Positions 2,458 to 57,696 of a stretch of DNA of 64,000 nucleotides are shown piece after piece. The notes below the pieces were generated by a model, which worked only from the letters and a program-made list of their open reading frames with translations, searched no databases and was not told the origin of the DNA. This DNA comes from Euryarchaeota archaeon UBA88 (lineage in GTDB: Archaea > Thermoplasmatota > Poseidoniia > Poseidoniales > Poseidoniaceae). The DNA lies in contig DAME01000025.1 of the NCBI GenBank assembly GCA_002499545.1, forward strand, positions 6,911 to 70,910, given 5' to 3'. The position numbers and the translations under genes are program-made. Every line of letters begins with the position of its first letter. The stretch's first letter is position 1.

Positions 2458-3519
2458 ATGGGAATGTCAGATGAAGAATTAGCGGTCTATGAAGAACTCT
2501 CGAAACTTAAAACTGAGTTGAAATCCAACGGTGATTCGAAAGTGGTTCTCATCGGCGACATCATGATGGATTGCTACATCCACGGATATGCGAACAATCT
2601 CAATTCAAGGGCACCAGTACCAGTTCTTCGCGAAACCATGCGTGAGGAAGATGTGGGCGCTGCTGCACATGTTGGTCGTGGACTCAAATCGATGGGAATG
2701 GAAAGTAGTTTATACGGAGTTGTGGGCGATGACAGGGCTGGTATGAATATTTTAGAATCCTTAAGTAAGGAAGGCGTTGGAACTGATGGAATTGCTATTG
2801 TCGATGGACGAATTACTACCGTTAAGACAAGGATGTTAGCGACACGTGAGAGCCTCGTGAGTGGTGAACAACTGTTGCTCCGATGGGATGTTGAAGACGA
2901 CCATCCAGTCCCTGCTGAAGCCTCCAAATCATTGTACGACCAAGCGATAACTGAGCTTGATGGAGCAGACGTACTGATCTTATCTGATTATGGACAAGGT
3001 GTCGTGAACGATGGTGGAGCAGAGCGAATTATTCGTGCTGCAAGGGAAAAAGCAGTTCCTATCGTTGCCGATCCGAAATTAACTGGATTGCACCGCACGC
3101 ATGGTGTAAATTGGATTCTCTTCCAAGCACAAGGCTTAGAATTAATGCGTAGAAGACTTGGAGTTTCAACGGGAAGTGAAGCTGCGCAACAACTTATTGA
3201 AGTTCATAATTGGGACCATTTAGTCGTTCTTTCGGGAGAAGGCGGGGTTACTATTTACTCCAAGAATCAGGAAATCGTTCACGCCCCGTGCACTCTCGAT
3301 GACTTGCGGCAGATGATTGGACTCATCGATGCGGCTGCTGTAGCAATCGCCGTTGCGATTTCGAAAAACATGAGTGTTCGAAATACTGCATTACTTGCAA
3401 ACGCTGCATGTGAATGTATTCTAGGTGCTGAACTCACCGAAGCGTTCGTTCTCAGCCGTGAAGATTTGGTCGATCGAATCGGTGAAATGTCTTGGAACCT
3501 CCAAGTTTCAAAACGCTGA
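2458..3519 (+). CDS. PfkB/ribokinase-family sugar kinase, similar to RfaE/HldE domain I (heptose-7-phosphate kinase)
   Basis: N-terminus KVVLIGDIMMDCYIHGYANNLNSRAPVPVL matches the RfaE kinase-domain signature (VLVxGDxMLDxY...SPEAPVPV). 353 aa. A strong Shine-Dalgarno sequence GAAAGGGAG lies 8 nt upstream of the ATG. Confidence 0.72.
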   Translation: MGMSDEELAVYEELSKLKTELKSNGDSKVVLIGDIMMDCYIHGYANNLNSRAPVPVLRETMREEDVGAAAHVGRGLKSMGMESSLYGVVGDDRAGMNILESLSKEGVGTDGIAIVDGRITTVKTRMLATRESLVSGEQLLLRWDVEDDHPVPAEASKSLYDQAITELDGADVLILSDYGQGVVNDGGAERIIRAAREKAVPIVADPKLTGLHRTHGVNWILFQAQGLELMRRRLGVSTGSEAAQQLIEVHNWDHLVVLSGEGGVTIYSKNQEIVHAPCTLDDLRQMIGLIDAAAVAIAVAISKNMSVRNTALLANAACECILGAELTEAFVLSREDLVDRIGEMSWNLQVSKR

Positions 3520-3528
3520 GGTGTTTCG

Positions 3529-4029
3529 ATGAGTTACTGGCCCAGGCCAACAACGGCAGATATTGGTCTACGTGCATTCGCATCAAGCGCTCACCGGCTT
3601 TTCACAGAGGCAACCATAGGAATGCAGAGTATCTTACTTTCTTCAAAGGGCGCTCTTGAATTGGATACACACGTTCGACATTCCTCACAGTGGCAGATTA
3701 TGTGCCACAAAAGCGGCTCCCAGATCGATTATGGATTGGTACTAATTCAGTGGTTAGAAGAAGTGCTCTACCGGAGCGAAGTCAAAGAGCAGTGGCTTGT
3801 TGACGCGCATTTCACCATTGAAGATCATTTAGAGGGAATTCGATTGAATGCGAATGTTTCATGGGTGAATGCAGATTGTGTTGAACGAGAAATAGAAATT
3901 AAAGCGGTCACGAGTCATGAGTTACAATTCAAAGAAATTCATGCGAATGAAGCGTTGACTTCGCCCTGGGAGGGCGTACCGGATTTTCAAGGACCGGGCT
4001 GGTTTTGCGATGTGGTATTCGATATTTGA
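3529..4029 (+). CDS. Archease (RtcB ligase cofactor / tRNA-processing chaperone)
   Basis: 166 aa. The N-terminal TTADIGLRAFASSAHRLFTEATIGMQSIL matches the archease HTADIG...LEEAF motif (the first His is Thr here). Internal IEIKAVTSHELQFKE and the C-terminal FDI end also match Pyrococcus archease. Confidence 0.78.
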   Translation: MSYWPRPTTADIGLRAFASSAHRLFTEATIGMQSILLSSKGALELDTHVRHSSQWQIMCHKSGSQIDYGLVLIQWLEEVLYRSEVKEQWLVDAHFTIEDHLEGIRLNANVSWVNADCVEREIEIKAVTSHELQFKEIHANEALTSPWEGVPDFQGPGWFCDVVFDI

Positions 4030-4277: not shown

Positions 4278-4580
4278 GAGTGGGAGGGCCAATGGTGGAC
4301 GACCGTACTCTTTGGCCTAGCCCACATACTTCCTCCATCCCGATACCCCACAGCACCCATGGCTCCGAGTAGGGCTGCTCCGTTCCCGGCCTGACCTATT
4401 CCCCCGGTTATCCAGTTCCTGTTTCCCTCCGGAAACAGTTCATGACACCCGAGTCATGTGGGGGCGAGACATCAACGTCCGCGTGTAGAAACCAAAAAGC
4501 CGCTTTCGCCGCCCAAAGGCGTTCAGCCCACCGTAAAGACGATTTGTGGTACAGGGTACGCCTAGCTCCCCACCTATCCC
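4278..4580 (-). ncRNA. Signal recognition particle RNA (7S / SRP RNA); boundaries approximate (about 20 nt either way)
   Basis: The minus strand contains AGGUCAGGCCGGGAACGGAGCAGCC. This matches the universally conserved helix-8 (domain IV) motif of SRP RNA (E. coli 4.5S: AGGUCAGGUCCGGAAGGAAGCAGCC), including a GGAA tetraloop closed by CCG/CGG. An adjacent 8-bp hairpin CUGUUUCC-GGAG-GGAAACAG fits helix 6 with a GNAR loop. The interval is 345 nt with no credible protein and sits between the archease and CcmE-like genes. A TATA-like TTCAAATAT lies about 25 nt upstream of the proposed 5' GGGAUAGG. Confidence 0.5.
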
Positions 4581-4599
4581 ATTCAGGCCTGCACAAGGT

Positions 4600-11988: not shown

Positions 11989-14900
11989 ATGAGCAAGCGT
12001 ACCGTGACCGCTTTGATTCTCGTAGGTCTTATGTTCACATCAGGTTGCATGGGAGCAATTGAATCTGATTCGGATCTAACTGATGAACCAGAAATAGAAC
12101 TTGAATCCATTTCACTCACTGCAAGTTGGGAATTAGCACCTTCTCAAGGTCTGGTGAATGATGCACCGATTCAATTCAATGTTAAGATTCAAGCCACGGG
12201 TCAAGACTGGACCGCTTCGCCAATGATTATCTCGCCGAGCATTGAACTTGTAGCAGAATTTGAATGGGAAAAAACACCGCTCGGTTACACGCTTCAGTTG
12301 ACGCCAACTGAAATTGGTTCGTATCTTGTTCAGGTGGATTTTGCAACAACTAACGGAGCGGTATTCGCTCTCCCAATTCCTGAACCATTGACCCATACTC
12401 TGAATGTTACACCGGTTCAAGAACTCGCCCCAGTCCTGAGTGCACCTGTCGCGATTGAACTAAGTGAACCCACGATTATCTGGTTTGAAGGTAGTGTCAC
12501 CCATTCATCCATCACAACATGCACACTCGACTATTCGGTTAGGAATGGCGAAAGTGGAACTGTATTTGTACGGGATGACGGTACTTGGAAACGAATGATT
12601 GATTTTTCAGAATTAAGTGATTCTACTGCTATAACCACAACGGTAACCTGTGGAGAATTCACTGCACTCAGCGATACCGTGACAACCCAAATTTATCTTG
12701 ACAGTCCAGGCAACGACACAGATGGTGACGGTATCCTCGACCTGGTTGACCGTTGTATGGACGGTTATGGTGCCGAAGAAGGATGGGTATCGACTGATGA
12801 AAGTGATATCGACGGGGACGGTTGCAATGATTTCCATGAAGATCTGGACGACGATAATGACGGTGTTGGTGACGATTTTGATGAGTGCCCTGACTCTGTA
12901 GGTTGGGTGAGTACACCCTATGCTGACTATGATTCTGATGGGTGCCATGATGCTGATGAAGACCTTGACGATGATGGTGATGGGGTTCTTGATGAATTCG
13001 ATGATTGCCCGAGCGGACAACTTGGATGGGGTTCGAATTTTTACAGCGATCGAGATGGAGATGGATGTGCTGATTTAGACGAGGATTCTGATGACGACAA
13101 TGATGGATTAGAGGATGAACTGGATGCATGTCCAAGAGGTCAGAGCAACTGGTTCCGAAACACAAGCAGTGATTTTGATGATGATGGATGCGCTGACCAA
13201 TCGGAAGACGAGGACGATGACAACGACGGTGTCAACGATGTCAACATCACTGGCGACATGCTTGATCGATGCCCACGAACAGCACTTAACTCAACCGACG
13301 TAGATCAAAACGGCTGCTCAGCACTCCAGCGTGATACTGATCTTGATGGCGTTAATGATGCTCACGATCAGTGTGAGGGGACGCCTTCTGGATTGACGGT
13401 CAACGATGTAGGTTGTGCAGACTTGGACAACGATGGTGTGTATGCAAATGTTGACCAATGTCCTAATTCGCCTGAAAGATGGACCATTGAAATCGATGGG
13501 TGTGCTGTTATCCAGCAGCCTGTTGCTTGGAAAAGCAGTTCCCCATTGACTGGTCCGATGCAAATCGTTCCACAATTTTCTACACCAACGCTCAATGGAA
13601 CCTACTACTTCCAACAACGCTGGACTGGCTATGACGTCTACTTTTTCATGTTCAAATACACGGATGCAGATGGGAACGGAAATTCTGCAACATGGGGGCA
13701 AAACCCTGGCCCGTTCATTCGTTCGTTACCAGATAATGTTCACCTGTTCTATGGTTCGTTCGATACCACATACCACGCCGATATTCTAAATCGAAAGGCT
13801 GCGGTTGAAAATGCGCTGAACCCAAGTGAGGAAGATGCATGGGAAGGGCGAATACACTACATTGACCAACGTGCAAATGGCATCAATGGCGGGTTGGGGC
13901 AGATGATCTCCTCCTTCAACAGTCCGTTGTACATGGGCATCGACCGATTTCAAATGGCTCGGGAGACGGGTTCACTCTATGCTTGGACATCATCAAATAA
14001 CGACCCAATGCATCTCGTCCATGAGCCAAAGCAGTGGAATGCCGAATTCCCGGTAGAATCACGCAGACACGATAGCGGTATTCATGAAGTAAAACTCTGG
14101 GATTTTGACGCACACAGTGGGGGTTGGGGTGGAGGTTTTACCTCGGCCCAGACATCGATTTTACCTTCAAACATGTCTCAATTTGATACGATGGAAGTCT
14201 ACCATGAGCACGCATGCGAAGACAGAATGAACCGTCATACGAAAGCCGACGGTTCCACGGGTGGGTGCCATGAGTGGGATTATGAAGCCAATCTACGAAT
14301 TTGCGATCGAGCAAATGCATCATCGTGCGGAACAGAATTCATGAGGTGGATTACAACGTACGGTCGAGAAGGGAAATGGCTTACCGACATTTCACCCTAC
14401 CTTTTCATGCTGGAAGATGATGATAATCGAACCTTCAAGTATCGAGGAGCGAACAAGGGAGATCTGACAATCACCCTCTTACTCAGTAACTGGGGAAGTG
14501 GCTTGAGAGCTTCATCTGCAGATTTTGCCTTTACCGGCGGTCAGTTTGATGGAACGTACAACAACGAGTCAATGTATGACAGAAGCCTCAATTTTACCGT
14601 CCCCTCATGGGCGGAAAGAGTGGAGATTGTTGCCACGATAACAGGCCATGGATTCAATAAGGACAATGCCAATTGTGCAGAGTTTTGTGACCATCAACAC
14701 CATTACTACCTCAATGGATTCACGACTTATGAATGGCATCCATTGGTCTACTCCAATGAAGGATGTGAAAATGAAGTGAGTAACGGTGTGGTTGCCAATC
14801 AGTTCGGCTCATGGCCGTTTGGTCGCGCAGGCTGGTGTGCTGGTCAAGACGTCAAGCAATGGACATATGACATCACAAGTTGGAGCGACATGAGCGGTTC

Positions 14901-15030
14901 AGTCAACGAGCTTACCTACAGAGGATTGTTCAACGGTCAAGAATATCAACCATCTGATGGGATAGGAAACGGACAGCGTAACATACATGCGGAAATTTGG
15001 GTTGTGTATTACGCTGCCACTCTACAGTGA
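11989..15030 (+). CDS. Secreted/lipid-anchored acidic surface protein with TSP3 calcium-binding repeats and a C-terminal PNGase F-like peptide:N-glycanase domain
   Basis: Signal peptide plus lipobox-like LMFTSGC. At least 8 TSP3 repeats (DTDGDGILDLVDRC, DIDGDGCNDFHEDLDDDNDGVGDDFDECP...). The C-terminal roughly 300 aa align to Flavobacterium PNGase F: CHEWDYEANL vs CDEWDRYANV (Asp60), ITGHGFNKDNANCAEFC vs ISGWGHAKPYDAGSRGCAEWC (Glu206), GCENEV...FGRAGWCAG vs GCSANP...DRAGWCPG (Arg248/Trp251). The disulfide spacing is preserved. Confidence 0.8.
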   Translation: MSKRTVTALILVGLMFTSGCMGAIESDSDLTDEPEIELESISLTASWELAPSQGLVNDAPIQFNVKIQATGQDWTASPMIISPSIELVAEFEWEKTPLGYTLQLTPTEIGSYLVQVDFATTNGAVFALPIPEPLTHTLNVTPVQELAPVLSAPVAIELSEPTIIWFEGSVTHSSITTCTLDYSVRNGESGTVFVRDDGTWKRMIDFSELSDSTAITTTVTCGEFTALSDTVTTQIYLDSPGNDTDGDGILDLVDRCMDGYGAEEGWVSTDESDIDGDGCNDFHEDLDDDNDGVGDDFDECPDSVGWVSTPYADYDSDGCHDADEDLDDDGDGVLDEFDDCPSGQLGWGSNFYSDRDGDGCADLDEDSDDDNDGLEDELDACPRGQSNWFRNTSSDFDDDGCADQSEDEDDDNDGVNDVNITGDMLDRCPRTALNSTDVDQNGCSALQRDTDLDGVNDAHDQCEGTPSGLTVNDVGCADLDNDGVYANVDQCPNSPERWTIEIDGCAVIQQPVAWKSSSPLTGPMQIVPQFSTPTLNGTYYFQQRWTGYDVYFFMFKYTDADGNGNSATWGQNPGPFIRSLPDNVHLFYGSFDTTYHADILNRKAAVENALNPSEEDAWEGRIHYIDQRANGINGGLGQMISSFNSPLYMGIDRFQMARETGSLYAWTSSNNDPMHLVHEPKQWNAEFPVESRRHDSGIHEVKLWDFDAHSGGWGGGFTSAQTSILPSNMSQFDTMEVYHEHACEDRMNRHTKADGSTGGCHEWDYEANLRICDRANASSCGTEFMRWITTYGREGKWLTDISPYLFMLEDDDNRTFKYRGANKGDLTITLLLSNWGSGLRASSADFAFTGGQFDGTYNNESMYDRSLNFTVPSWAERVEIVATITGHGFNKDNANCAEFCDHQHHYYLNGFTTYEWHPLVYSNEGCENEVSNGVVANQFGSWPFGRAGWCAGQDVKQWTYDITSWSDMSGSVNELTYRGLFNGQEYQPSDGIGNGQRNIHAEIWVVYYAATLQ

Positions 15031-19298: not shown

Positions 19299-22200
19299 TT
19301 ATTGGGCAAACGGATCGCAGAGTTCCCCTTGTCCTGGGAAACTTGTAGGATTGCGGGGATTGGTATCCCACTTGAATTCACAATAATTCACGTGGCCGTC
19401 TCCATCTGTGTCAATCATCCGATCAGCAGGGTCAAACGGATCGAATTGGAAGTGATATTCCCATCCAGTTGCCATACCATCGTCATCATGGTCTTGATAG
19501 TAGACTTCCGGACCATCATTCCAACCGTCACCATCGGTGTCGTTGGTGATTGGGCTGGTGCCGTTTTGCTTCTCTTCCAAGTTGGTATAATTTTCTAAGT
19601 TATCGTAAAACCGTTTTCCATCAGGTGTATCGGGGTCAATATTGCAGTCGGAATTCGTTGTATCATTGTAACCGGAGCAATATTTGCGAATCAGTCCAGT
19701 ACGGTTAAGCCCGTCAGTGTCGGGGTCTTCGTCACCGTCCATGATACCGTCAAGGTCGCTGTCGGGCATGGAAGGGTCCATCACGCCACGAGCGCCGTAA
19801 GCGTCGATTGAGGAATTGTCCACCAGTCCGCTATCCAAAGCAAGTCCGGAGTAGTACACTTCCCATCCATCAGGTAATTGGTCACCATCGGTATCGTCAT
19901 CGACTGGGTTCGTGTTCCACTTGTCAGGTGCTTCAGCCCCATTCGCCAATGAATCGTTATCGATATCAAACGTGTCATCTTTCATCGAACCAAGTGATGG
20001 GTCAAGAGCCCAACGTCCATTGCAGGCACAGAAGTTATTGACGGGAATTGAAAAACCAGTGAGATTCATTTCCGAAACAGCATATTTTTTCTCTACGATG
20101 AAACCGCCCAAGTTATTTTGCCAAACGTAACCACCGGCTTCCATCGAGCAATCGTTGTTTTGTGAGGGGACGCATCCAGGACGTTCCCAGGATGATGTTG
20201 CGACCCAAAGACTGTGGGAATTCGTGTTGTCTTCCGACGATTTTACCTGCATCTCCCAACCGTCAAGCATCCCATCGGAATCGGTATCGTTCTGCAGTGG
20301 ATTGGTTGGATTTTGGAACGGTCGTGGTACGAACAAGACTTCATTTCCGTCAAGAAGACTATCGTTATCTGTATCAGAGTTGTTTGCGTGGGTAAGGAAG
20401 TTATCTTTCCCAGCAATGACTTCTTCTCCATCTTCAAGACCGTCGTTGTCGGTATCAAACATACAAGGACTGGTGAAGTATGATTCACCCTCCCATGTAT
20501 AGCCTGTGAGGGCTTCTATTTGGTCAAGTTCACCATCGCCATCAGTATCCGGATTTGAAGCATTGGAACCTCCAGCACACACTGAAGCGAATTCCATGTA
20601 ATCCGATAAGCCATCTTCATCGGTGTCAAAGAGTCCTGGGTCTGATGTAACCCAGGTCTTGATAACACCGTTATTCACGACGAGAATTTCCCAACCCATC
20701 ACTTCAATTCCATCAAGAAGTCCATCACCGTCAGTGTCTGGATTCAGTGGATTGGTTGAACGACCATCTATCACTCCGTCATTGTCGCGGTCTCGTGCGT
20801 TGTATTCCATGAGGTTCGTGAATTGTTCTTCAGGTTCTACAATTTGCATCCAGCTAAAGAGACGGGACTCGACGGCCTGTCCGAGAGTAACATCAATCGA
20901 ATAAACATAGCCGGCAACTGGCGCAATCATGGCGACAGTTTGCTTCTGACCACCTGCCAGGGTGATTTGGCCACGAGCGACAGTGGAGTTTGCTTCAACC
21001 CACTGGTCTTCAATCACATCAATTCCGATAACGATGGTTGTTGACTCAAGTGTAGAATAGAAGACTCCACCATCTCCATCAACGTCCCAACCGTCTCGAT
21101 CAGGATCGAGGTTGCCGTTAGCACCATCACGGGGGTGAAGCCCGTTAGTTGATTCCCATCCATCTGGCATACCATCTTGGTCAGTATCGAGCCTCCACGG
21201 GGATGTGAAGTTCGTAGGGCCAAATGTGTTCGCAACGAGGTATTCTTCGAAGTTGTTCAGTCCATCTTCATCCCAGTCACCGTATCCGTCGGATGCGTTT
21301 GAGGGATTCAAAACCTTGAGTGCATCGTTCTGCGGTTGGTCATTCACGTTGGAGTAACAAAATTCGAATCCATCCGGCATACCGTCACCGTCGGTGTCCC
21401 AGTCGGATGGTCCGTTGAGTAAACCATCACCGTCCATGTCCATGAGGAACCAAGAGTTTTCAACACCAGAAAACGGAGCTAAGCGTGAAATTGGATCGAG
21501 AAGAGGTGTGTTGCAGTCTTCTCCAACCCCCGTGCTAAGAACGACGGAATCCAAGCCTACTTCGACAATGTCGTCGAGCAAATCCATGTCCGAATCACGA
21601 GCGTTAGGGTTGGTGCCAAAGAGTTCTTCCTGGAAGTTTGGAAGACCGTCTTCATCCGTGTCCAGAATCATATCACAGGAGTGCGAGCCTTGCGAATTGG
21701 CGAGTTCAGACCATGAAGGCAGCACGCCTTCAGCGTCATCATAAAAACTGGAGAGAGTATCTTCCATTGCTTGGTCAAGAAGAAGGCAATCCCAATTTCC
21801 GTTGAGTGGATCGAAGAGGGTAACTTCGCCTCCAGGAGTTTGTACAACCATTGTATACATCGATTCCCAGCGGTCGTTGAGATTGTCATTGTCAGTATCC
21901 GCACGTTGAGGATCGGTGCCGAGTTCTTGCTCGACTTGGTTGGTTAACCCGTCATTATCAGGATCGCCGTTTGGTCCTTGTTCAGGGTCTGGCCAAGAAT
22001 CAGTTTCGTTTTCGATGTTAGCATCGTCGGTTTGATCTGCTTGAGAAGGATCTTGAATGATATCTTCTGATTCACCGTTATCAAGTGGATTGAGGCCGTG
22101 TTCAACTTCCCATCCATCACTCATACCGTCGTTATCCGTATCGGGTTTATCGGGGTCAGTGCCGTACTGAGTCGATTCAAGAGTATCTGAAAGACCGTCC

Positions 22201-22430
22201 CCATCTGAATCTAAACCCGCACCGATTGCCGTACCAGAACCTATCAAATCCTCTTCAGCAGCACTTTCGTATCCACCAATCGATTCACTCGTTTGGAAAT
22301 ATCCTGAAAAACCCACAAAGAGAGAGCCGAAAATCAAGGTAGAAATGATTGCAGCATAGGCCATTTGGTTGTGACTTAAGGACATTTGACTCACCGTGCA
22401 CATCAGTGCAGTCTCTCCGACTTCGTACAT
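19299..22430 (-). CDS. Giant acidic surface protein built from bacterial-type thrombospondin type-3 (TSP3) calcium-binding repeats
   Basis: 1043 aa. N-terminal signal anchor, then more than 15 repeats of D-x-D-x-D-G-[LM]-x-D-G-[WE]-E, for example DSDGDGLSDTLES, DTDNDGMSDGWEVEHGLNPLD and DTDQDGMPDGWESTNGLHP. Very low pI. Alternative start Mets at 22385 and 22361. Confidence 0.75.
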   Translation of the reverse strand: MYEVGETALMCTVSQMSLSHNQMAYAAIISTLIFGSLFVGFSGYFQTSESIGGYESAAEEDLIGSGTAIGAGLDSDGDGLSDTLESTQYGTDPDKPDTDNDGMSDGWEVEHGLNPLDNGESEDIIQDPSQADQTDDANIENETDSWPDPEQGPNGDPDNDGLTNQVEQELGTDPQRADTDNDNLNDRWESMYTMVVQTPGGEVTLFDPLNGNWDCLLLDQAMEDTLSSFYDDAEGVLPSWSELANSQGSHSCDMILDTDEDGLPNFQEELFGTNPNARDSDMDLLDDIVEVGLDSVVLSTGVGEDCNTPLLDPISRLAPFSGVENSWFLMDMDGDGLLNGPSDWDTDGDGMPDGFEFCYSNVNDQPQNDALKVLNPSNASDGYGDWDEDGLNNFEEYLVANTFGPTNFTSPWRLDTDQDGMPDGWESTNGLHPRDGANGNLDPDRDGWDVDGDGGVFYSTLESTTIVIGIDVIEDQWVEANSTVARGQITLAGGQKQTVAMIAPVAGYVYSIDVTLGQAVESRLFSWMQIVEPEEQFTNLMEYNARDRDNDGVIDGRSTNPLNPDTDGDGLLDGIEVMGWEILVVNNGVIKTWVTSDPGLFDTDEDGLSDYMEFASVCAGGSNASNPDTDGDGELDQIEALTGYTWEGESYFTSPCMFDTDNDGLEDGEEVIAGKDNFLTHANNSDTDNDSLLDGNEVLFVPRPFQNPTNPLQNDTDSDGMLDGWEMQVKSSEDNTNSHSLWVATSSWERPGCVPSQNNDCSMEAGGYVWQNNLGGFIVEKKYAVSEMNLTGFSIPVNNFCACNGRWALDPSLGSMKDDTFDIDNDSLANGAEAPDKWNTNPVDDDTDGDQLPDGWEVYYSGLALDSGLVDNSSIDAYGARGVMDPSMPDSDLDGIMDGDEDPDTDGLNRTGLIRKYCSGYNDTTNSDCNIDPDTPDGKRFYDNLENYTNLEEKQNGTSPITNDTDGDGWNDGPEVYYQDHDDDGMATGWEYHFQFDPFDPADRMIDTDGDGHVNYCEFKWDTNPRNPTSFPGQGELCDPFAQ

Positions 22431-45593: not shown

Positions 45594-45665
45594 GCCACCG
45601 TGGCTTAGCGGTATAGCACCTCATTGGTAATGAGGAGGTCGCGAGTTCAATTCTCGCCGGTGGCT
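45594..45665 (+). tRNA. tRNA-Thr(GGU): tRNA-Thr (anticodon GGU)
   Basis: Hand-folded cloverleaf: acceptor GCCACCG/CGGUGGC, D-loop AGCGGUA, anticodon stem CCUCA/UGAGG with loop UUGGUAA, T-arm GCGAG-UUCAAUU-CUCGC, discriminator U. No intron and no encoded CCA. Confidence 0.85.
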
Positions 45666-45709
45666 CTTCCTCTGCGACGCAGCATGCACACTGCTCAAAG
45701 ATGTTGAGG

Positions 45710-45792
45710 CGCCGAGAGAGAGATTTGAACTCCCGAGGGACAGGCCCACGCGATTTCCAGTCGCGCGCACTACCAGGCTATGCGATCTCGGC
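45710..45792 (-). tRNA. tRNA-Ser(GGA): tRNA-Ser (anticodon GGA) with long variable arm
   Basis: Acceptor GCCGAGA/UCUCGGC, 3-bp D-stem with long D-loop, anticodon stem CGCGA/UCGCG with loop CUGGAAA, 14-nt variable arm UGGGCCUGUCCCUC, T-arm GGGAG-UUCAAAU-CUCUC, discriminator G. A TATA-like TTTAAC lies about 29 nt upstream. Confidence 0.85.
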
Positions 45793-52087: not shown

Positions 52088-53068
52088 TCAAGGGCTGGCT
52101 TTGATTGATTCCAGTAACGCAATGATTGACTTCGAAGTGAGCAGCGGGGCGTTCAATGATGAAAGATGGTTTCGAATAGCCTGTCTCTGCCATCCTTTGA
52201 AGGCTTTTTTATCCATAGAAAAGACAATTTTACCTCCAGGATAGGCGGCTTTGGTCGAAGAAAAAGCGGCATTAATCGATTGTTTCCAATTACCACCAGG
52301 TTCTGAGTTTTCTTCAACTGGTTGTTCAAACGGTAAGGCATATGTTGCTAACATGTGACCAATTCGCAATCCGTGGTGTACTCCCAAGAGGTTTGCACGT
52401 GGTGCATAATGGCCACCTCCCAATGTGATGAGAACTGGAGTTCCTGCGTCGCGGTGCTCGTCCCATGAACCAATACCTGACCCGCCATCCAAACCGATTC
52501 CACGATGAATAATATTCGCAAGCAATTTCGCAGCACCGAAATGACCCCAAGTGTCGGATGTTGAGCCAACTTCGATGAACAATGATGGAACGGTGACCCA
52601 AGGTCCATGGTGAGTGACTTCAAGAGAAATATCGAACGGTTCTCCCAAATCTGTGTCGCTATGAACTCGAATCAATTCTTGCCACCATGAAGCCAAACGA
52701 GGTGATGGTGGAGGTGCATCACCAGATTTCCCCCCATAGGGTGATGTCGATTCCCTGTCGAGATGGGGCACTCCAATTGGATGAAGCGTGAGAGAGGGGC
52801 GACCACTGACTGCTGAATGGCGTGATGGAAAGATGATTTCGCTCACCGATTCTCCGGTGGCCTTCTTCCAGCGTTGTGCAAGGAAATCCTGTGACAATAT
52901 ATTCCCAGGTAGAATCCACATACGTGCATCAAGGTTTGAAAAAGCAGGATACCCCTCAACCATACCTTGCGATGTCCATCCACCGATTTCTTGAAGCGCA
53001 TCGGCTTGGTTTGTCGATGCTATATCGCTTCCGTTTACAGCAATGAGTACCACAGTCTGCCCGACCAT
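52088..53068 (-). CDS. dtdA: D-aminoacyl-tRNA deacylase, archaeal type (DtdA)
   Basis: PSRHSAVSGRPSLTLHPIG, EVTHHGPWVTVPSLFIEVGSTSDTW, LGGGHYAPR and GHMLATYA align closely with Pyrococcus abyssi DtdA (ASRHSS...[50 protein letters not shown]). Confidence 0.85.
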   Translation of the reverse strand: MVGQTVVLIAVNGSDIASTNQADALQEIGGWTSQGMVEGYPAFSNLDARMWILPGNILSQDFLAQRWKKATGESVSEIIFPSRHSAVSGRPSLTLHPIGVPHLDRESTSPYGGKSGDAPPPSPRLASWWQELIRVHSDTDLGEPFDISLEVTHHGPWVTVPSLFIEVGSTSDTWGHFGAAKLLANIIHRGIGLDGGSGIGSWDEHRDAGTPVLITLGGGHYAPRANLLGVHHGLRIGHMLATYALPFEQPVEENSEPGGNWKQSINAAFSSTKAAYPGGKIVFSMDKKAFKGWQRQAIRNHLSSLNAPLLTSKSIIALLESIKASP

Positions 53069-53119
53069 GCTTCATTGAGAGGCGCTCAACTTTTGATACC
53101 TCCTCATGCAAGAATTGAC

Positions 53120-54073
53120 ATGCAACGGGCACGAGGAGTACGCATGACCGGAGAGGTGCCCGATGCGCTTTCATTCCACCCCTCGGTGATTCATCACTGG
53201 GATGGAGGATACATCGGTATTGGAATCGACGGTGAATTGGTGAAATTATCCTCCGATCTCGTCGTTGAAGGTCCCGTTGTAAAGCCATTTCCTACACCTA
53301 TACATTCCTCTACTGTTCTCGGTGAACAACTCATCTTAACCTGGGTTGACCATGAATTGTTGCTCGCACGAATGTCCTCGATTGATTTGAATTCAAAGTT
53401 GCAAAACGGACCTGACCGTGGAGAACTTCGAACTCGTCGAGAAGTGAATGTGGCACTGCATCCAGCAGGAACCGTGTGGTCGCATGTCTTGGACTCTGAG
53501 CCGTTGAGTTTGACGTCGAACAATGAATTCTTCACATTTGTACTGTGGAGAAAGGGAATCTATTGCATGGGGATGGATGCTGGCGAGCACTGGAGGAAAG
53601 AAGAACCAAATTGGCCAGAATTGGGACGGCTTCCATCTGCACAAACCGTTGTGGCTTCTGCCCTTCAAAATGATGAGTTGACGGTTTGGTCGCGTGGAGG
53701 TGGTTTTGCTTCGTACGATGTCAAGACCGGTGAACTGCGCTCCGCGGGTGTTATCGGGTTTCAAGGAATCTTGCAACAGGTTTACTGCACTGCAAAACAC
53801 CAGTTGTTGTGCTATGAAAGTGGAGATGTGCTCTGGGTAGAGGATGGAATTCATCGAGTCCAACAGCGATTCAAGGGCCCAGTTCAGCACGCTCTTTGGA
53901 ATGAGGGGAAGGATGGGTGGAATATCGCTGGATGGAGAGAAGAAGCCATGCTCACAAAAGATAATTGCCTCCAGCGAACATTGGATGAAATTCCTGTCCA
54001 AGTTCTCGAACACAAAGGAAAGCGGCTATTGGTCCTCAACAATGGTACTTTCATCGAATCAAATTTGTCATGA
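53120..54073 (+). CDS. Hypothetical protein with beta-propeller-like repeats
   Basis: Track ORF 52967..54073; the start is moved to the first Met beyond the dtdA start. Repeated W/G-rich beta-strand motifs. No family recognised. Confidence 0.42.
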   Translation: MQRARGVRMTGEVPDALSFHPSVIHHWDGGYIGIGIDGELVKLSSDLVVEGPVVKPFPTPIHSSTVLGEQLILTWVDHELLLARMSSIDLNSKLQNGPDRGELRTRREVNVALHPAGTVWSHVLDSEPLSLTSNNEFFTFVLWRKGIYCMGMDAGEHWRKEEPNWPELGRLPSAQTVVASALQNDELTVWSRGGGFASYDVKTGELRSAGVIGFQGILQQVYCTAKHQLLCYESGDVLWVEDGIHRVQQRFKGPVQHALWNEGKDGWNIAGWREEAMLTKDNCLQRTLDEIPVQVLEHKGKRLLVLNNGTFIESNLS

Positions 54074-54147: not shown

Positions 54148-57045
54148 ATGGAAATGAAGGTTGTGCTCTTGAGCGGTGTCCTCGCATTGTTGATGGTGAG
54201 CTCAGGATTTCTGATCATAGCCAATGAAACAGCAAGCGAAGACGATGGAGAAATCGTAGCTCAAGATGAAAACCAGAACGAACCAGTGAACAATGTACCT
54301 AGCCTCCTCATCGCTTCACAGTTCACCCACCAATGGGACGGAATGAATTCCACAATAAGTGGATTTGTTACCGATGAGCAGAGTAGTTCTTGCTACGTCA
54401 TCGTCATGCTTCTAGATTCAACAAGCCTCGCCCAGGTTGGCGAAACTTTCAATGTGACACCAGACCAAAGCGGTGCATGGTCCATGGCCACACCGTTCTC
54501 GAATCCAGGTACTTGGATTGTGCAAGCTCAAGCCTACGACCAAGAAGGCCAAAGCAGTGATTCTACGATGTCGCAGATAGCCATTGTTGCTCCAGATGAA
54601 AGCGATGTTCTGGTATCTTTTCTCTGGGCTCAACCATTAGAAAATTCCTCGATTGGAACGCTCCAAGGGCTGATGCTTCACATGTTCCCATCGACATGTT
54701 CCGTGGAATACCATCCGCTTGGTCAAAGTCCTGCCAGATTAATTGTCGGTGATACAAATCAAACCAGTGGCCAATTCACTCTACAGGTGAACACCAGTTA
54801 CCACAACACAGTTGGAGACCTCATAGCAGATTGCGGAATGTTTAGTTCCTCATCATCAAGCATACGATTGAACCTTCCCGTACCTCCAGAACCTGAAGGT
54901 GATGAAGACAGTGATGGCGTACTCGATGAATCAGACGAATGTGATAATACGCCACTGGGCGAACCAGTGTATGCGAGCGGCTGCTCAGACTCAGAAACAG
55001 ACACGGACATGGATGGTGTCATGAATGATAAAGACCAATGTCCCAACACGCCGACGTCACAAAGCGTGGATGCGAACGGTTGCGCAGACAGTCAGAAAGA
55101 TACCGACAATGACGGCATCAATAACGTTGCAGACATTTGTCCGAACACTCCCGCAGGGGAATCCGTTGATCTCACAGGATGTTCGGAATCGCAAAAAGAC
55201 GATGACGGTGATGGCGTCACAAATAACCTTGATGAATGCCCAAATACACCTGCCGGTGAGACAGTGAATGCTGTAGGATGTTCAACTGCAGCGCCAAGTC
55301 CAACACCGATGAAAATTCTCGCACTCCATGGTGGTGGAGATTCTGCCTCTGGTTTGGCTTCGCAACAAGGAATGCAAGATTTGATGGATGCACTGCCTGA
55401 ATTTGAGTTCGTTTTCGCCAGCACGCCCGAGAGTGGAAATGTATGGTACCAAGACCCCCCCGGTGGAAAAGGCGAACCAACCACTGACCCAGACTGGGCA
55501 GACCTCGCAATTGCGTATCTCGACCAAAAGGTGATCGATGATGGTCCATTTTATGGTCTGATTGGCTATTCACAAGGTTCTGCAATGATTCCAGTCTACC
55601 TCGCCAACACGGAAAACACGTTCAATAGAGTCATGCTGTACAATGGCTACTTACCAACAACGCATCATGGCCTGATGGACTCCATCGATGATGCCGCTCC
55701 TTTCTCGACGCCAGCTATGATCTTCTCCGGTGAAAACGATGGTGCTTTCAAAGACCTCGCCCCTGCCCTCGCCCAGAAGTTCACTGGTTCGCTCGACCTC
55801 CACAGTCAAACTGCAGGACATCACCTACCGTACGAAAATGACGAGCACTTTGACCAAATACTTACCTTCATTCAAGCGGGAATTGAAACCTACGACCCTG
55901 TCGATTCATGGTATTGCCAAGATGGAACAGGCCCATGGGTCCGTGATGACAATGGAGTCAATGACAACTACAATTCGAACACCAACGGGGTTAGCTCACC
56001 AAATGGTGGAGGGTCCGGACCATGGTTCAAATGCATAATCTCTGTGACCTCCACATCAACGAGTATGACCGCTACGGCCAATGGAATTCCAAACCACAAC
56101 TGGATTTCGGCATTCGGTCCCGGTGATGAACAATCTCACACGTGGCAAATTCCATTGAATCCTGTCAATGATACTACGGGTGGACACAACTCAGCGAATT
56201 GTCCAGCATCAAATGGACGCTGGGAATGCGCTGCTGACCGTGGCCAAATCGCAGTTGCGAGCAATGGTGTGCCGATTTTTGGTCCTGAAGAAGGGCCTGG
56301 TGGTGATGCTGTTGCCCTTGATTTCTTTTACTTTACAGAAGACCGACAACCGATTGATTTAGGCTACTGTGGCGCTCATGCCGGACCGACTGGAGTTCAC
56401 TACCACTGGGACGCAATGTGTCAATATTGGGTTCCTGAAAATGGACAGACAATGGTTGATTATGATTGGTCACTCATAGACTCAAATCAACACTCACCGA
56501 TCATTGGATGGTCCTTTGACGGATATCCAATTTATGGGATGTACACGTGGAATGAAAACGGTGTTGTCCAGGGAATGAAATCGTCGTATGAGATTGATAG
56601 AACCAGCGATGGAGGTGACCAGGGTTACAACGGCATTGATGATTGGACTTACGTTGATGGAATGGGAGACCTTGATGAATGCAATGGAAGGTTTGGAGCG
56701 ACACCCGAATACCCAGACGGAACGTATTACTATGTATCGACACCATTGAGTGGTTCAACCAAGACTGTCGTCGACACGAATGGAGATACGCAACCAATGA
56801 TTGGGTTCCCATACTTCCTTCTTTGCTACCACGGAATTGCAGACGACTCCAATGCTGGCGGGGGCCAGGGCGGCGGCGGTGGCGGCGGTGGATTTATCGC
56901 ACAAACAATCTATCAACACATGCCTGAAGTATTAGAGGATAATTCCGATGAGCGGTCTGTACTCGCACTACTATCGAACAGCACGTGGGTTTGGGTCATG
57001 ATGATTGGAACGCTGTACCTCTACAAGCGTACTGAAAAGCAATGA
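54148..57045 (+). CDS. Secreted multidomain protein: TSP3 calcium-binding repeats, FSH1-type alpha/beta serine hydrolase, YHYH-like Cys/His-rich domain, Gly tract and C-terminal TM anchor
   Basis: Signal peptide; TSP3 repeats (DTDNDGINNVADICPNTPAGESVDLTGCS x4). Hydrolase core ILALHGGGD...GLIGYSQGSAMIP (GxSQG nucleophile)...GENDGAF...GHHLPY (Asp/His). C-terminal GAHAGPTGVHYHWDAMC...DECNGRFGATPEYPDGTYYYV. The protein ends GGGQGGGGGGGGF-IAQ...VWVMMIGTLYLY-KRTEKQ. Confidence 0.8.
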   Translation: MEMKVVLLSGVLALLMVSSGFLIIANETASEDDGEIVAQDENQNEPVNNVPSLLIASQFTHQWDGMNSTISGFVTDEQSSSCYVIVMLLDSTSLAQVGETFNVTPDQSGAWSMATPFSNPGTWIVQAQAYDQEGQSSDSTMSQIAIVAPDESDVLVSFLWAQPLENSSIGTLQGLMLHMFPSTCSVEYHPLGQSPARLIVGDTNQTSGQFTLQVNTSYHNTVGDLIADCGMFSSSSSSIRLNLPVPPEPEGDEDSDGVLDESDECDNTPLGEPVYASGCSDSETDTDMDGVMNDKDQCPNTPTSQSVDANGCADSQKDTDNDGINNVADICPNTPAGESVDLTGCSESQKDDDGDGVTNNLDECPNTPAGETVNAVGCSTAAPSPTPMKILALHGGGDSASGLASQQGMQDLMDALPEFEFVFASTPESGNVWYQDPPGGKGEPTTDPDWADLAIAYLDQKVIDDGPFYGLIGYSQGSAMIPVYLANTENTFNRVMLYNGYLPTTHHGLMDSIDDAAPFSTPAMIFSGENDGAFKDLAPALAQKFTGSLDLHSQTAGHHLPYENDEHFDQILTFIQAGIETYDPVDSWYCQDGTGPWVRDDNGVNDNYNSNTNGVSSPNGGGSGPWFKCIISVTSTSTSMTATANGIPNHNWISAFGPGDEQSHTWQIPLNPVNDTTGGHNSANCPASNGRWECAADRGQIAVASNGVPIFGPEEGPGGDAVALDFFYFTEDRQPIDLGYCGAHAGPTGVHYHWDAMCQYWVPENGQTMVDYDWSLIDSNQHSPIIGWSFDGYPIYGMYTWNENGVVQGMKSSYEIDRTSDGGDQGYNGIDDWTYVDGMGDLDECNGRFGATPEYPDGTYYYVSTPLSGSTKTVVDTNGDTQPMIGFPYFLLCYHGIADDSNAGGGQGGGGGGGGFIAQTIYQHMPEVLEDNSDERSVLALLSNSTWVWVMMIGTLYLYKRTEKQ

Positions 57046-57054
57046 GGACTCGTT

Positions 57055-57696
57055 GTGTCAATTCGACTCGCACCGTTTGCTGTAGTAGTAATGCTCCTCG
57101 TAACAGGATGTGTCACGCCATCAGACCCTGACCTCTACCACGGTGTGGATATATTTCCTGCCAAAAAAACACTTCAATTCAACCTCATCGATGATACGAA
57201 TTCGGAGTTTAATTCCTCATCAATCGAAGGGAGTGTTTGGGTTGTAGGATTCGTATTCACCAATTGTCCCGACTTTTGTTCTACGGTGACAACGGAGATG
57301 AAGGAAATCCAGGATTCGCTCACTGATTGGGAACGCAGAAACACCAGTTTCATCTCTATCACGGTTGACCCTTGGCGGGACGGTCCAATGCTGCTCACGC
57401 AGTACAAAGAAATCATGAACGTGACGTGGCCACACTTAACCACCAATATCGATTCAGAGAACAACCTTTCACGAATCGAAGATGTTTGGACGAATTTTGA
57501 AATTGGCTTGGTTCTTACTGAATCACAAAACAGTACGAGCACATCCGGACGTGGGCATACAGTATACTACAGCATTGAACATACCAATGGTGTCGTACTG
57601 GTTGACGCAAATGGTTTCCAGCAGGTTCAGTGGACTGAAGATAACTGGAACACAACGCTCATTGTTGAAGACGTTCGGATGTTACTGAACGATTGA
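57055..57696 (+). CDS. SCO1/SenC-family copper chaperone (thioredoxin fold), lipoprotein-like
   Basis: FTNCPDFC (CxxxC copper-binding motif) and the conserved His region GHTVYY. N-terminal signal with lipobox-like LLVTGC. 213 aa. Confidence 0.75.
   Translation: MSIRLAPFAVVVMLLVTGCVTPSDPDLYHGVDIFPAKKTLQFNLIDDTNSEFNSSSIEGSVWVVGFVFTNCPDFCSTVTTEMKEIQDSLTDWERRNTSFISITVDPWRDGPMLLTQYKEIMNVTWPHLTTNIDSENNLSRIEDVWTNFEIGLVLTESQNSTSTSGRGHTVYYSIEHTNGVVLVDANGFQQVQWTEDNWNTTLIVEDVRMLLND

Follow-up and report, generated by a model that had tools for sequence, protein, structure and literature searches.

A stretch of 64,000 nucleotides from the assembly of Euryarchaeota archaeon UBA88, a member of the Poseidoniaceae (contig DAME01000025.1, positions 6,911 to 70,910, here called the window), was analysed around one gene on its forward strand. 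The open reading frame (ORF), read from the window sequence as 54148..57045, starts with ATG and codes for a protein of 965 amino acids that combines TSP3 repeats, an FSH1-type serine hydrolase and a YHYH domain. It is followed in the same orientation by a SCO1/SenC copper-chaperone gene. An earlier description made without database searches, the sequence-only reading, had assigned to this ORF four TSP3 repeats, a hydrolase with the motifs GYSQGS, GENDG and GHHLPY, and a YHYH-like C-terminal domain with the motif VHYHW. These assignments stood: the ORF is exact, four TSP3 cores were found, and the Pfam matches to YHYH, TSP_3 and FSH1 are all above the gathering thresholds. Judged by these profiles, all three domains genuinely belong to their Pfam families. 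The architecture given in that reading was incomplete, as it missed a C-terminal transmembrane (TM) anchor, the downstream SCO1/SenC gene and the optional nature of the FSH1 cassette. The SCO1/SenC coupling is the most informative context of the target gene.

The modular map in Table 1 was derived from an alignment of the target and its orthologues (A1, 17 sequences). A regular-expression search placed the DxDxDG cores of the TSP3 repeats at residues 252, 285, 318 and 351, with a period of exactly 33 residues. There are two invariant cysteines per repeat, and both the Asp and the Cys columns are invariant in the 17 sequences of A1. In a PDB sequence search this region aligned with the TSP3 segment of an OmpA protein (5wtl); the NCBIfam and PDB sequence searches with the target recognised nothing beyond the TSP3 repeats. 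Bacterial OmpA-family and other TSP3-repeat surface proteins and the Poseidoniales 'thrombospondin' genes (Rinke et al. 2018) use DxDxDGxxDxxDxC repeats as an extracellular stalk, as the target appears to do. Unlike in these proteins, however, the stalk of the target bears, in place of a peptidoglycan-binding or purely adhesive domain, two putative catalytic modules.

The linker that follows the YHYH region is rich in Gly and Pro across all A1 orthologues. The C-terminal hydrophobic stretch and basic tail are kept in all orthologues that bear YHYH and are absent from 577-aa paralogues that carry FSH1 only. The C-terminus reads ...LLSNSTWVWVMMIGTLYLYKRTEKQ, and no PGF precedes the TM helix as in an archaeosortase PGF-CTERM signal; the C-terminus was therefore treated as a plain TM anchor. 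The signal peptide together with the C-terminal TM helix suggests a type-I membrane protein with an ectodomain of ~900 aa, a topology that would place the protein at the cell surface and that supports the earlier claim of a secreted or extracytoplasmic protein. A juxtamembrane His/Met motif, YQHMPE, was considered as a Cu(I) site and rejected because it is not conserved among orthologues.

Table 1. Coordinates of the target gene, its modules and other features of the window.
Feature	Residues	Position (nt)	Strand	Remarks
TATA-like box ATATTTAAAAAA		54090..54101	+	~50 nt 5' of the start codon; sequence reading; candidate archaeal promoter
N-terminal hydrophobic signal peptide or signal anchor, MEMKVVLLSGVLALLMVSSGFLIIANE	1-27	54148..54228	+	Sequence; kept in all A1 orthologues
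Variable N-domain, probably Ig-like	46-245	54283..54882	+	Weak Big_13 match, E=0.03
Four TSP3 calcium-binding repeats	249-385	54892..55302	+	Pfam TSP_3 PF02412, E=2e-14
FSH1/APT-like serine hydrolase cassette	386-585	55303..55902	+	Pfam FSH1 PF03959
Predicted catalytic Ser	Ser475	55570-55572	+
Predicted catalytic Asp	Asp531	55738-55740	+
Predicted catalytic His	His558	55819-55821	+
YHYH region	586-897	55903..56838	+	Pfam YHYH PF14240; conserved His, several conserved Cys
Conserved His	His744	56377-56379	+
Conserved His	His751	56398-56400	+
Conserved His	His753	56404-56406	+
Gly-rich flexible linker and juxtamembrane segment	898-939	56839..56964	+	Includes GGGQGGGGGGGG at 904-915; sequence reading
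C-terminal TM helix, basic tail KRTEKQ (960-965), stop	~940-959 (helix)	56965..57045	+	Sequence reading
SCO1/SenC copper-chaperone gene		57055-57696	+	Pfam SCO1-SenC PF02630, E=1.2e-21, 77.5 bits vs 22.8
Archaeal SRP RNA		4278-4584	-	Rfam RF01857, 134.6 bits
tRNA-Thr(GGU)		45594-45666	+	Divergent arrangement with tRNA-Ser
tRNA-Ser(GGA)		45708-45792	-	Divergent arrangement with tRNA-Thr

The possibility that the ORF is a chimera of metagenome assembly, or a fusion produced by sequencing error, has to be weighed, as two-domain versions exist as separate genes, one of 577 aa with TSP3 and FSH1 and one of ~770 aa with TSP3 and YHYH. However, the identical 965-aa protein (P0001) with the same neighbours was recovered from three or more samples, on contigs assembled independently (SRR5036682, TARA_SAMEA2623126 and ERR4691822), the architecture recurs in 12 species-level metagenome-assembled genomes (MAGs), and the reading frame is kept intact, with purifying selection acting across the junctions. 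Furthermore, synonymous sites are saturated between lineages, so that there is no DNA identity able to mislead an assembler. On these grounds a chimera was rejected as hardly conceivable, and the gene and its domain architecture are real.

Orthologues with the same three domains are common across MAGs; they are 965-990 aa long and share 57-76% identity, and their sources, which assign them to Poseidoniales, Poseidoniaceae or Marine Group II, annotate them as 'hypothetical protein' or 'predicted esterase'. The window itself is archaeal, as shown by the archaeal SRP RNA at 4278-4584. A search of archaeal MAGs for the same architecture, made in a species-representative genome collection, found all three domains in 12 of the 33 orthologous species-level Poseidoniales loci. 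The earlier claim that the combination is undescribed was right in one sense: no paper describing the tri-domain arrangement was found in the literature searched, nor one describing its optional, mosaic nature or its lineage-specific SCO coupling. It was wrong in another, as public databases contain the architecture from 12 or more species-level MAGs of Poseidoniales, and P0001 itself is already deposited in NCBI, ENA and Tara data.

The FSH1 profile matched residues 388-565 with E=4.2e-13 (49.9 bits against a cut-off of 21; profile positions 5-206 of 211). The three hydrolase motifs were located at 473-478 (GYSQGS), 528-532 (GENDG) and 557-562 (GHHLPY), and the Ser475/Asp531/His558 triad, together with the HGGG of the oxyanion region, is invariant across 44 diverse homologues (alignment A4). 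The AlphaFold (AF2) model of the cassette had a pLDDT of 96.4. A Foldseek search with this model returned SOBER1, APT1/2, the marine esterase PE8, yeast FSH1 (1ycd) and LYPLAL1 at TM 0.6-0.7; 1ycd was matched with E=1e-7 and TMq 0.69-0.71, and SOBER1, APT1 and PE8 scored equally well. The GxSxG segment thus falls in a hydrolase fold, as had been proposed.

With FSH1/OVCA2 proteins and the APT/SOBER1/carboxylesterase group, the cassette shares the compact lid-less alpha/beta-hydrolase fold, the GxSxG nucleophile elbow and the Ser-Asp-His order. However, it is only about 14-19% identical to solved structures, and its profile-to-PDB sequence matches were weak (2xmz and 1ycd, E about 1e-4), which indicates that it belongs to a divergent clade. 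In contrast to FSH1/OVCA2, the cassette has a clade-specific, highly conserved loop, W..DPPGGKGEPTTDPDWAD, comes from a secreted or surface-displayed marine clade and is embedded in a 965-aa membrane-anchored protein. Its closest non-archaeal relatives, 45-64% identical, are proteins of 235-273 aa from marine bacteria with signal peptides or lipoboxes, and 350-aa fusions to RTX repeats. The signal peptides and lipoboxes argue that this FSH1 clade is generally secreted, and the cytosolic location that the sequence-only reading gave as the normal one for FSH1 hydrolases does not hold for it. No hint of a substrate came from the gene context of the standalone secreted relatives.

Experiments have established FSH1 and OVCA2 as esterases with a Ser-His-Asp triad and a preference for long-chain alkyl esters (PMC7077851). 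The cassette of the target has an intact triad and is under selective constraint, and sequence and model together give good support to the prediction that it is an active serine esterase. A yeast copper-homeostasis screen that names FSH1 was discarded as incidental, since the phenotype concerned growth on ethanol. A group of ~60% identical FSH1 relatives from marine bacteria (P0243-P0253; for example positions 2773-3840 of locus L090) combines RTX calcium-binding repeats with lipoboxes and forms an undescribed group of predicted secreted esterases.

FSH1 is an optional cassette within an otherwise conserved TSP3-YHYH surface protein. A 763-aa orthologue (P0045) occupies the identical syntenic slot and lacks exactly the FSH1 cassette, which appears in A1 as a clean excision. 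The order of genes around it is subtilase, CPxCG zinc finger, proline dehydrogenase, D-aminoacyl-tRNA deacylase, unknown, P0045, SCO1 and rpS27e/S24e/Rpo7. The 577-aa form consists of the N-domain, TSP3 and FSH1; it ends after the esterase with no anchor and is located elsewhere without SCO1. In the tree of the YHYH domain, tri-domain and FSH1-less proteins are interleaved, indicating at least three events of gain or loss.

Nei-Gojobori counts showed purifying selection in all four regions of the target gene. Synonymous sites were saturated throughout (pS 0.75-0.9, with FSH1 at ~0.8). Non-synonymous divergence was highest in the N-domain (mean pN 0.41), followed by TSP3 (0.25), YHYH (0.18) and FSH1 (0.145), the lowest value marking the esterase as the most constrained module. 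The FSH1 cassette is 90-94% identical between diverged hosts. A recent horizontal spread of the cassette was rejected because its synonymous sites are as saturated as those of the other regions; the high identity therefore reflects purifying selection. Additionally, for ten tri-domain genes (the target and those of loci L004, L009, L012, L014-L016, L021, L023 and L038), the N-domain, FSH1 and YHYH trees disagree with one another. The N-domain, TSP3 and FSH1 of the target are nearest to L023 (59%, 73% and 92%), and its YHYH is nearest to L009 (81%, compared with 67% to L023). The YHYH domains of L023 and L021 are 94% identical and their N-domains 38%. This incongruence points to old, module-level recombination between Poseidoniaceae lineages, and it cannot be assembly chimerism because the synonymous sites are saturated.

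The YHYH profile (PF14240) matched residues 666-866 with E=2.9e-30 (106.1 bits against a cut-off of 25). The motif reads VHYHW (750-754) in the target; its first Tyr is replaced by Val and is Tyr in many orthologues, and both His residues are present along with the upstream CxxH744. In an alignment of 114 YHYH sequences (A3), the invariant columns were E714, D720, R733, C741, H744, H751, H753, D755, C758, W761, D791, Y796, D843, C845 and N846, and H650 was near-invariant. Among 79 distant members only the core CxxH...HYH...FDGxPIYG...DLDxCNG persists, which identifies H744, H751 and H753 as a universal triad. At residues 760-762 (nt 56425-56433) the TSP3-YHYH clade has YWV (or YWE/FWD), and at least 90% of the other marine YHYH sequences in A3 have HWH; this swap may, going by the alignment, reflect a difference in the metal site or in its second coordination shell.

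The AF2 model of the domain (pLDDT 88.9, pTM 0.90) is mostly beta, with H744 and H751/H753 on consecutive strands, an arrangement that in the model resembles the geometry typical of mononuclear three-His sites. YHYH has no solved structural relative: a Foldseek search of the model against the PDB found none (best E=1.2, TM below 0.1), and a profile search of PDB sequences gave no match. A search of a viral library returned only other YHYH proteins, from cyanophages and giant viruses, and in PHROGs YHYH segments occur in phage baseplate and virion proteins. The family comprises about 3,800 clusters at 50% identity and is almost always extracellular, with fusions to T9SS tails, Ig/PKD/cadherin-like modules, SLH, RTX and, in one case, a sulfatase. 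A metal site formed by a His triad plus Asp, and a zinc hydrolase function, were predicted for phage-tail YHYH by Iyer et al. 2021 (PMC7824862); the His-triad prediction was counted as independent support for the metal site. No other statement on YHYH function was found in the literature searched. Conserved residues and model geometry give moderate support to a metal-dependent YHYH domain, and its role would be catalytic rather than one of binding. With other YHYH proteins the target shares the core motifs, the extracellular location and the predicted His-triad metal site. It differs from them in having VHYHW and no HWH pair, and in its TSP3 stalk, C-terminal TM anchor and operon-like coupling to SCO1.

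The conservation of these residues bears on whether the target is an enzyme at all. It could be a pure adhesin or structural surface protein whose hydrolase-like and YHYH modules bind without catalysis; the protein has TSP3 and Ig-like modules, fusions of YHYH to Ig, PKD or cadherin-like modules are frequent, and Rinke et al. read the Poseidoniales thrombospondin genes as adhesion factors (PMC6461757). However, the Ser-Asp-His triad and HGGG do not vary over the 44 diverse sequences, no region of the protein is under stronger constraint than the esterase, and the His triad is kept throughout the YHYH family. A purely adhesive or structural role was therefore considered very improbable.

The SCO1 gene starts 9 nt (GTG) or 45 nt (ATG) past the stop codon of the target. 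Its product has a lipobox-like LLVTGC, the motif CPDFC (Cys71/Cys75) and a distal His176. The CxxxC motif is invariant in 39 of 39 YHYH-adjacent SCO proteins, and the distal His is present in most of them; their weak AhpC-TSA/Redoxin matches correspond to the thioredoxin fold. SCO1 was the commonest neighbour of YHYH genes (26 of 80 genome loci, compared with 10 of 80 for the next family), always on the same strand and with gaps of -33 to +24 nt. It was present in 22 of the 33 orthologous loci: downstream in each of the 11 FSH1-bearing loci whose downstream sequence could be read and in seven FSH1-less loci, and upstream in three. The YHYH-SCO pair is also kept in a different neighbourhood with rhodopsin, ABC transporter and PcrB genes. 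Moreover, a second, deep-branching YHYH clade of Poseidoniales has an operon in which an LVIVD-propeller protein (670 aa), an unknown protein (277 aa) and two SCO1 proteins (255 and 368 aa) precede a YHYH protein of 661 aa (L068, 464-7146; also L073, L075, L085 and L088). SCO thus occurs in three arrangements relative to YHYH, namely downstream, upstream and as a tandem pair upstream. The linkage in Poseidoniales is firm, and the target and SCO1 are probably co-transcribed.

In L022, L033, L034, L035 and L040, too, TSP3-YHYH genes are preceded by genes for related LVIVD proteins, which have a TM helix at the N-terminus. The LVIVD-propeller partner of some YHYH-SCO operons is absent from the target window.

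A general association of YHYH with SCO was considered and rejected. Among 80 metagenome loci retrieved with a bacterial-type YHYH profile, five had SCO, all of the archaeal TSP3-YHYH type, and a SCO neighbour was present at 0 of 75 bacterial loci. The bacterial YHYH genes had no other informative recurrent neighbour.

In Streptomyces, a Sco lipoprotein metallates the membrane-anchored extracytoplasmic cuproenzyme GlxA, and gox-sco adjacency has been reported in Frankia and Burkholderia (PMC4736821). The target resembles this system in that the gene for a SCO lipoprotein is linked to one for an extracytoplasmic, membrane-anchored protein whose metal site is conserved. However, GlxA is a galactose-oxidase-like copper-radical oxidase of known fold and is not homologous to YHYH, for which copper is a proposal drawn from gene adjacency, and no ECuC/PCuAC or DyP partner was seen at the target.

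The reading favoured here makes the target a protein anchored at the surface that has two catalytic modules, namely an esterase and a metal-dependent YHYH domain loaded with copper by SCO; a probability of about 0.45 was assigned to it. It would be a type-I, C-terminally anchored cell-surface protein of a Poseidoniaceae (Marine Group II) archaeon, consisting in order of a signal peptide, an Ig-like domain, a TSP3 stalk, an esterase of FSH1/acyl-protein-thioesterase type, YHYH, a glycine linker and a TM helix. The four TSP3 repeats would form a rigid calcium-binding stalk. This protein may represent the conserved 'TSP3-YHYH' surface protein of the lineage, co-transcribed with a SCO1/SenC copper-chaperone lipoprotein, with the esterase as an optional, strongly constrained cassette between stalk and YHYH. 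At the cell surface, both modules would work on extracellular organic matter: the esterase or deacylase (Ser475-Asp531-His558) would strip acyl groups, and the beta-rich YHYH domain with its putative three-His metal site (His744, His751, His753) would carry out a metal-dependent step, the neighbouring SCO presumably inserting copper into YHYH at the membrane surface. It is a matter of speculation whether the two modules cooperate on one substrate, for example with one module deacylating a polymer before its backbone is cleaved, an idea modelled on multi-domain carbohydrate-active enzymes.

Copper as the YHYH metal in Poseidoniales is suggested by the gene neighbourhood and is the weakest step of this scheme. 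A three-His site fits zinc as well as copper, and the YHYH domain may be a zinc-dependent hydrolase, either a peptidase or a glycan hydrolase, with SCO serving another purpose. The SCO protein would then be a thioredoxin-fold thiol-disulfide oxidoreductase that maintains proper pairing of the many ectodomain cysteines, or a cytochrome-oxidase chaperone retained by synteny. The thioredoxin fold and weak AhpC-TSA/Redoxin matches of SCO and the several invariant cysteines of the YHYH region agree with this view, and the conserved His triad with its acidic residues, the published prediction for phage-tail YHYH (PMC7824862), the occurrence of YHYH in phage baseplate and virion proteins and the lack of a SCO neighbour at the 75 bacterial loci also speak for it. 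However, the SCO-YHYH coupling recurs in two deep clades, in three gene orders and in different neighbourhoods, which makes passive synteny hard to accept; the SCO proteins retain their copper ligands, CxxxC and His; and SCO genes are missing beside the other Cys-rich TSP3 surface proteins encoded in the window. This reading as a zinc hydrolase was judged rather unlikely.

The same tight, operon-like SCO linkage could also indicate a copper-acquisition relay rather than an enzyme. Copper from seawater would pass through YHYH and SCO to the CuA site of cytochrome oxidase, with YHYH as a functional analogue of bacterial PCuAC and the esterase as an unrelated passenger on a display scaffold. Open-ocean waters have very low free copper, and the linkage is restricted to open-ocean archaea. 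Furthermore, YHYH and SCO are both predicted to lie at the outer face of the membrane, and the FSH1 cassette is dispensable. However, a YHYH domain of ~300 aa with ~25 invariant positions, which include the non-ligand residues R733 and N846 and aromatic clusters, is more enzyme-like than chaperone-like, and it has no Met-rich Cu(I) motif. A relay also makes little sense for YHYH in phage virions or in T9SS-secreted bacterial proteins. This alternative was considered quite unlikely.

Several observations count against the favoured copper-loaded, two-enzyme reading. About 11 of the 33 orthologous archaeal loci have no SCO within the available flanks, the link is confined to Poseidoniales, and SCO could be a housekeeping chaperone for cytochrome oxidase. 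Among YHYH fusion partners elsewhere there are no cupredoxin or cytochrome domains, and no experimental characterisation of any YHYH protein was found in the literature searched. Additionally, there is no sign that the esterase and YHYH share a substrate, and the dispensability of the cassette in sister species argues that YHYH works without the esterase. A broader proposal makes YHYH a new fold class of extracellular copper enzymes across archaea, bacteria, cyanophages and giant viruses, for which oceanic archaea recruited a dedicated SCO and in which the esterase fusion marks an acylated extracellular polymer as substrate; it was rated unlikely.

Elsewhere in the window, two further proteins carry TSP3 repeats, in line with the suggestion of the sequence-only reading that TSP3 is a shared display module. 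A 1013-aa protein (11989-15030, forward strand) combines TSP3 with a PNGase F C-terminal domain (PF09113, E=6e-20); its repeats match the TSP3 region of the target with E=1e-26, making it a second enzyme on the same type of stalk. In a 1043-aa protein on the reverse strand (19299-22430), the only recognised domains are four TSP3 repeats of bacterial type (PF18884, E=6e-17). A co-oriented ORF (52967-54073, forward strand; called as 317 aa in identical contigs) immediately precedes the target; it has no Pfam match and no signal peptide. Its synteny is kept in L001 and L006, and it could be part of the target's transcription unit or be transcribed separately. From ~59259 to the end of the window and beyond it, the forward strand encodes a giant surface protein, which exceeds 1,900 aa in the identical contig L001 and has weak FG-GAP and CARDB matches.

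No archaea are more abundant in surface oceans than those of Marine Group II, which are uncultured. Genes such as the target are the main basis for inferring how they handle organic matter, both dissolved and particulate. The present analysis is valuable mainly in that it yields a testable idea of what the uncharacterised YHYH family does, for which the copper-chaperone link and the recurrent fusion to a constrained secreted esterase provide two concrete and cheap experimental handles. If copper dependence is not confirmed, the target stays an ordinary modular surface hydrolase. If it is true, YHYH would be a new cuproenzyme family and a new type of client for SCO proteins, and archaeal turnover of organic matter would be tied to the availability of copper.

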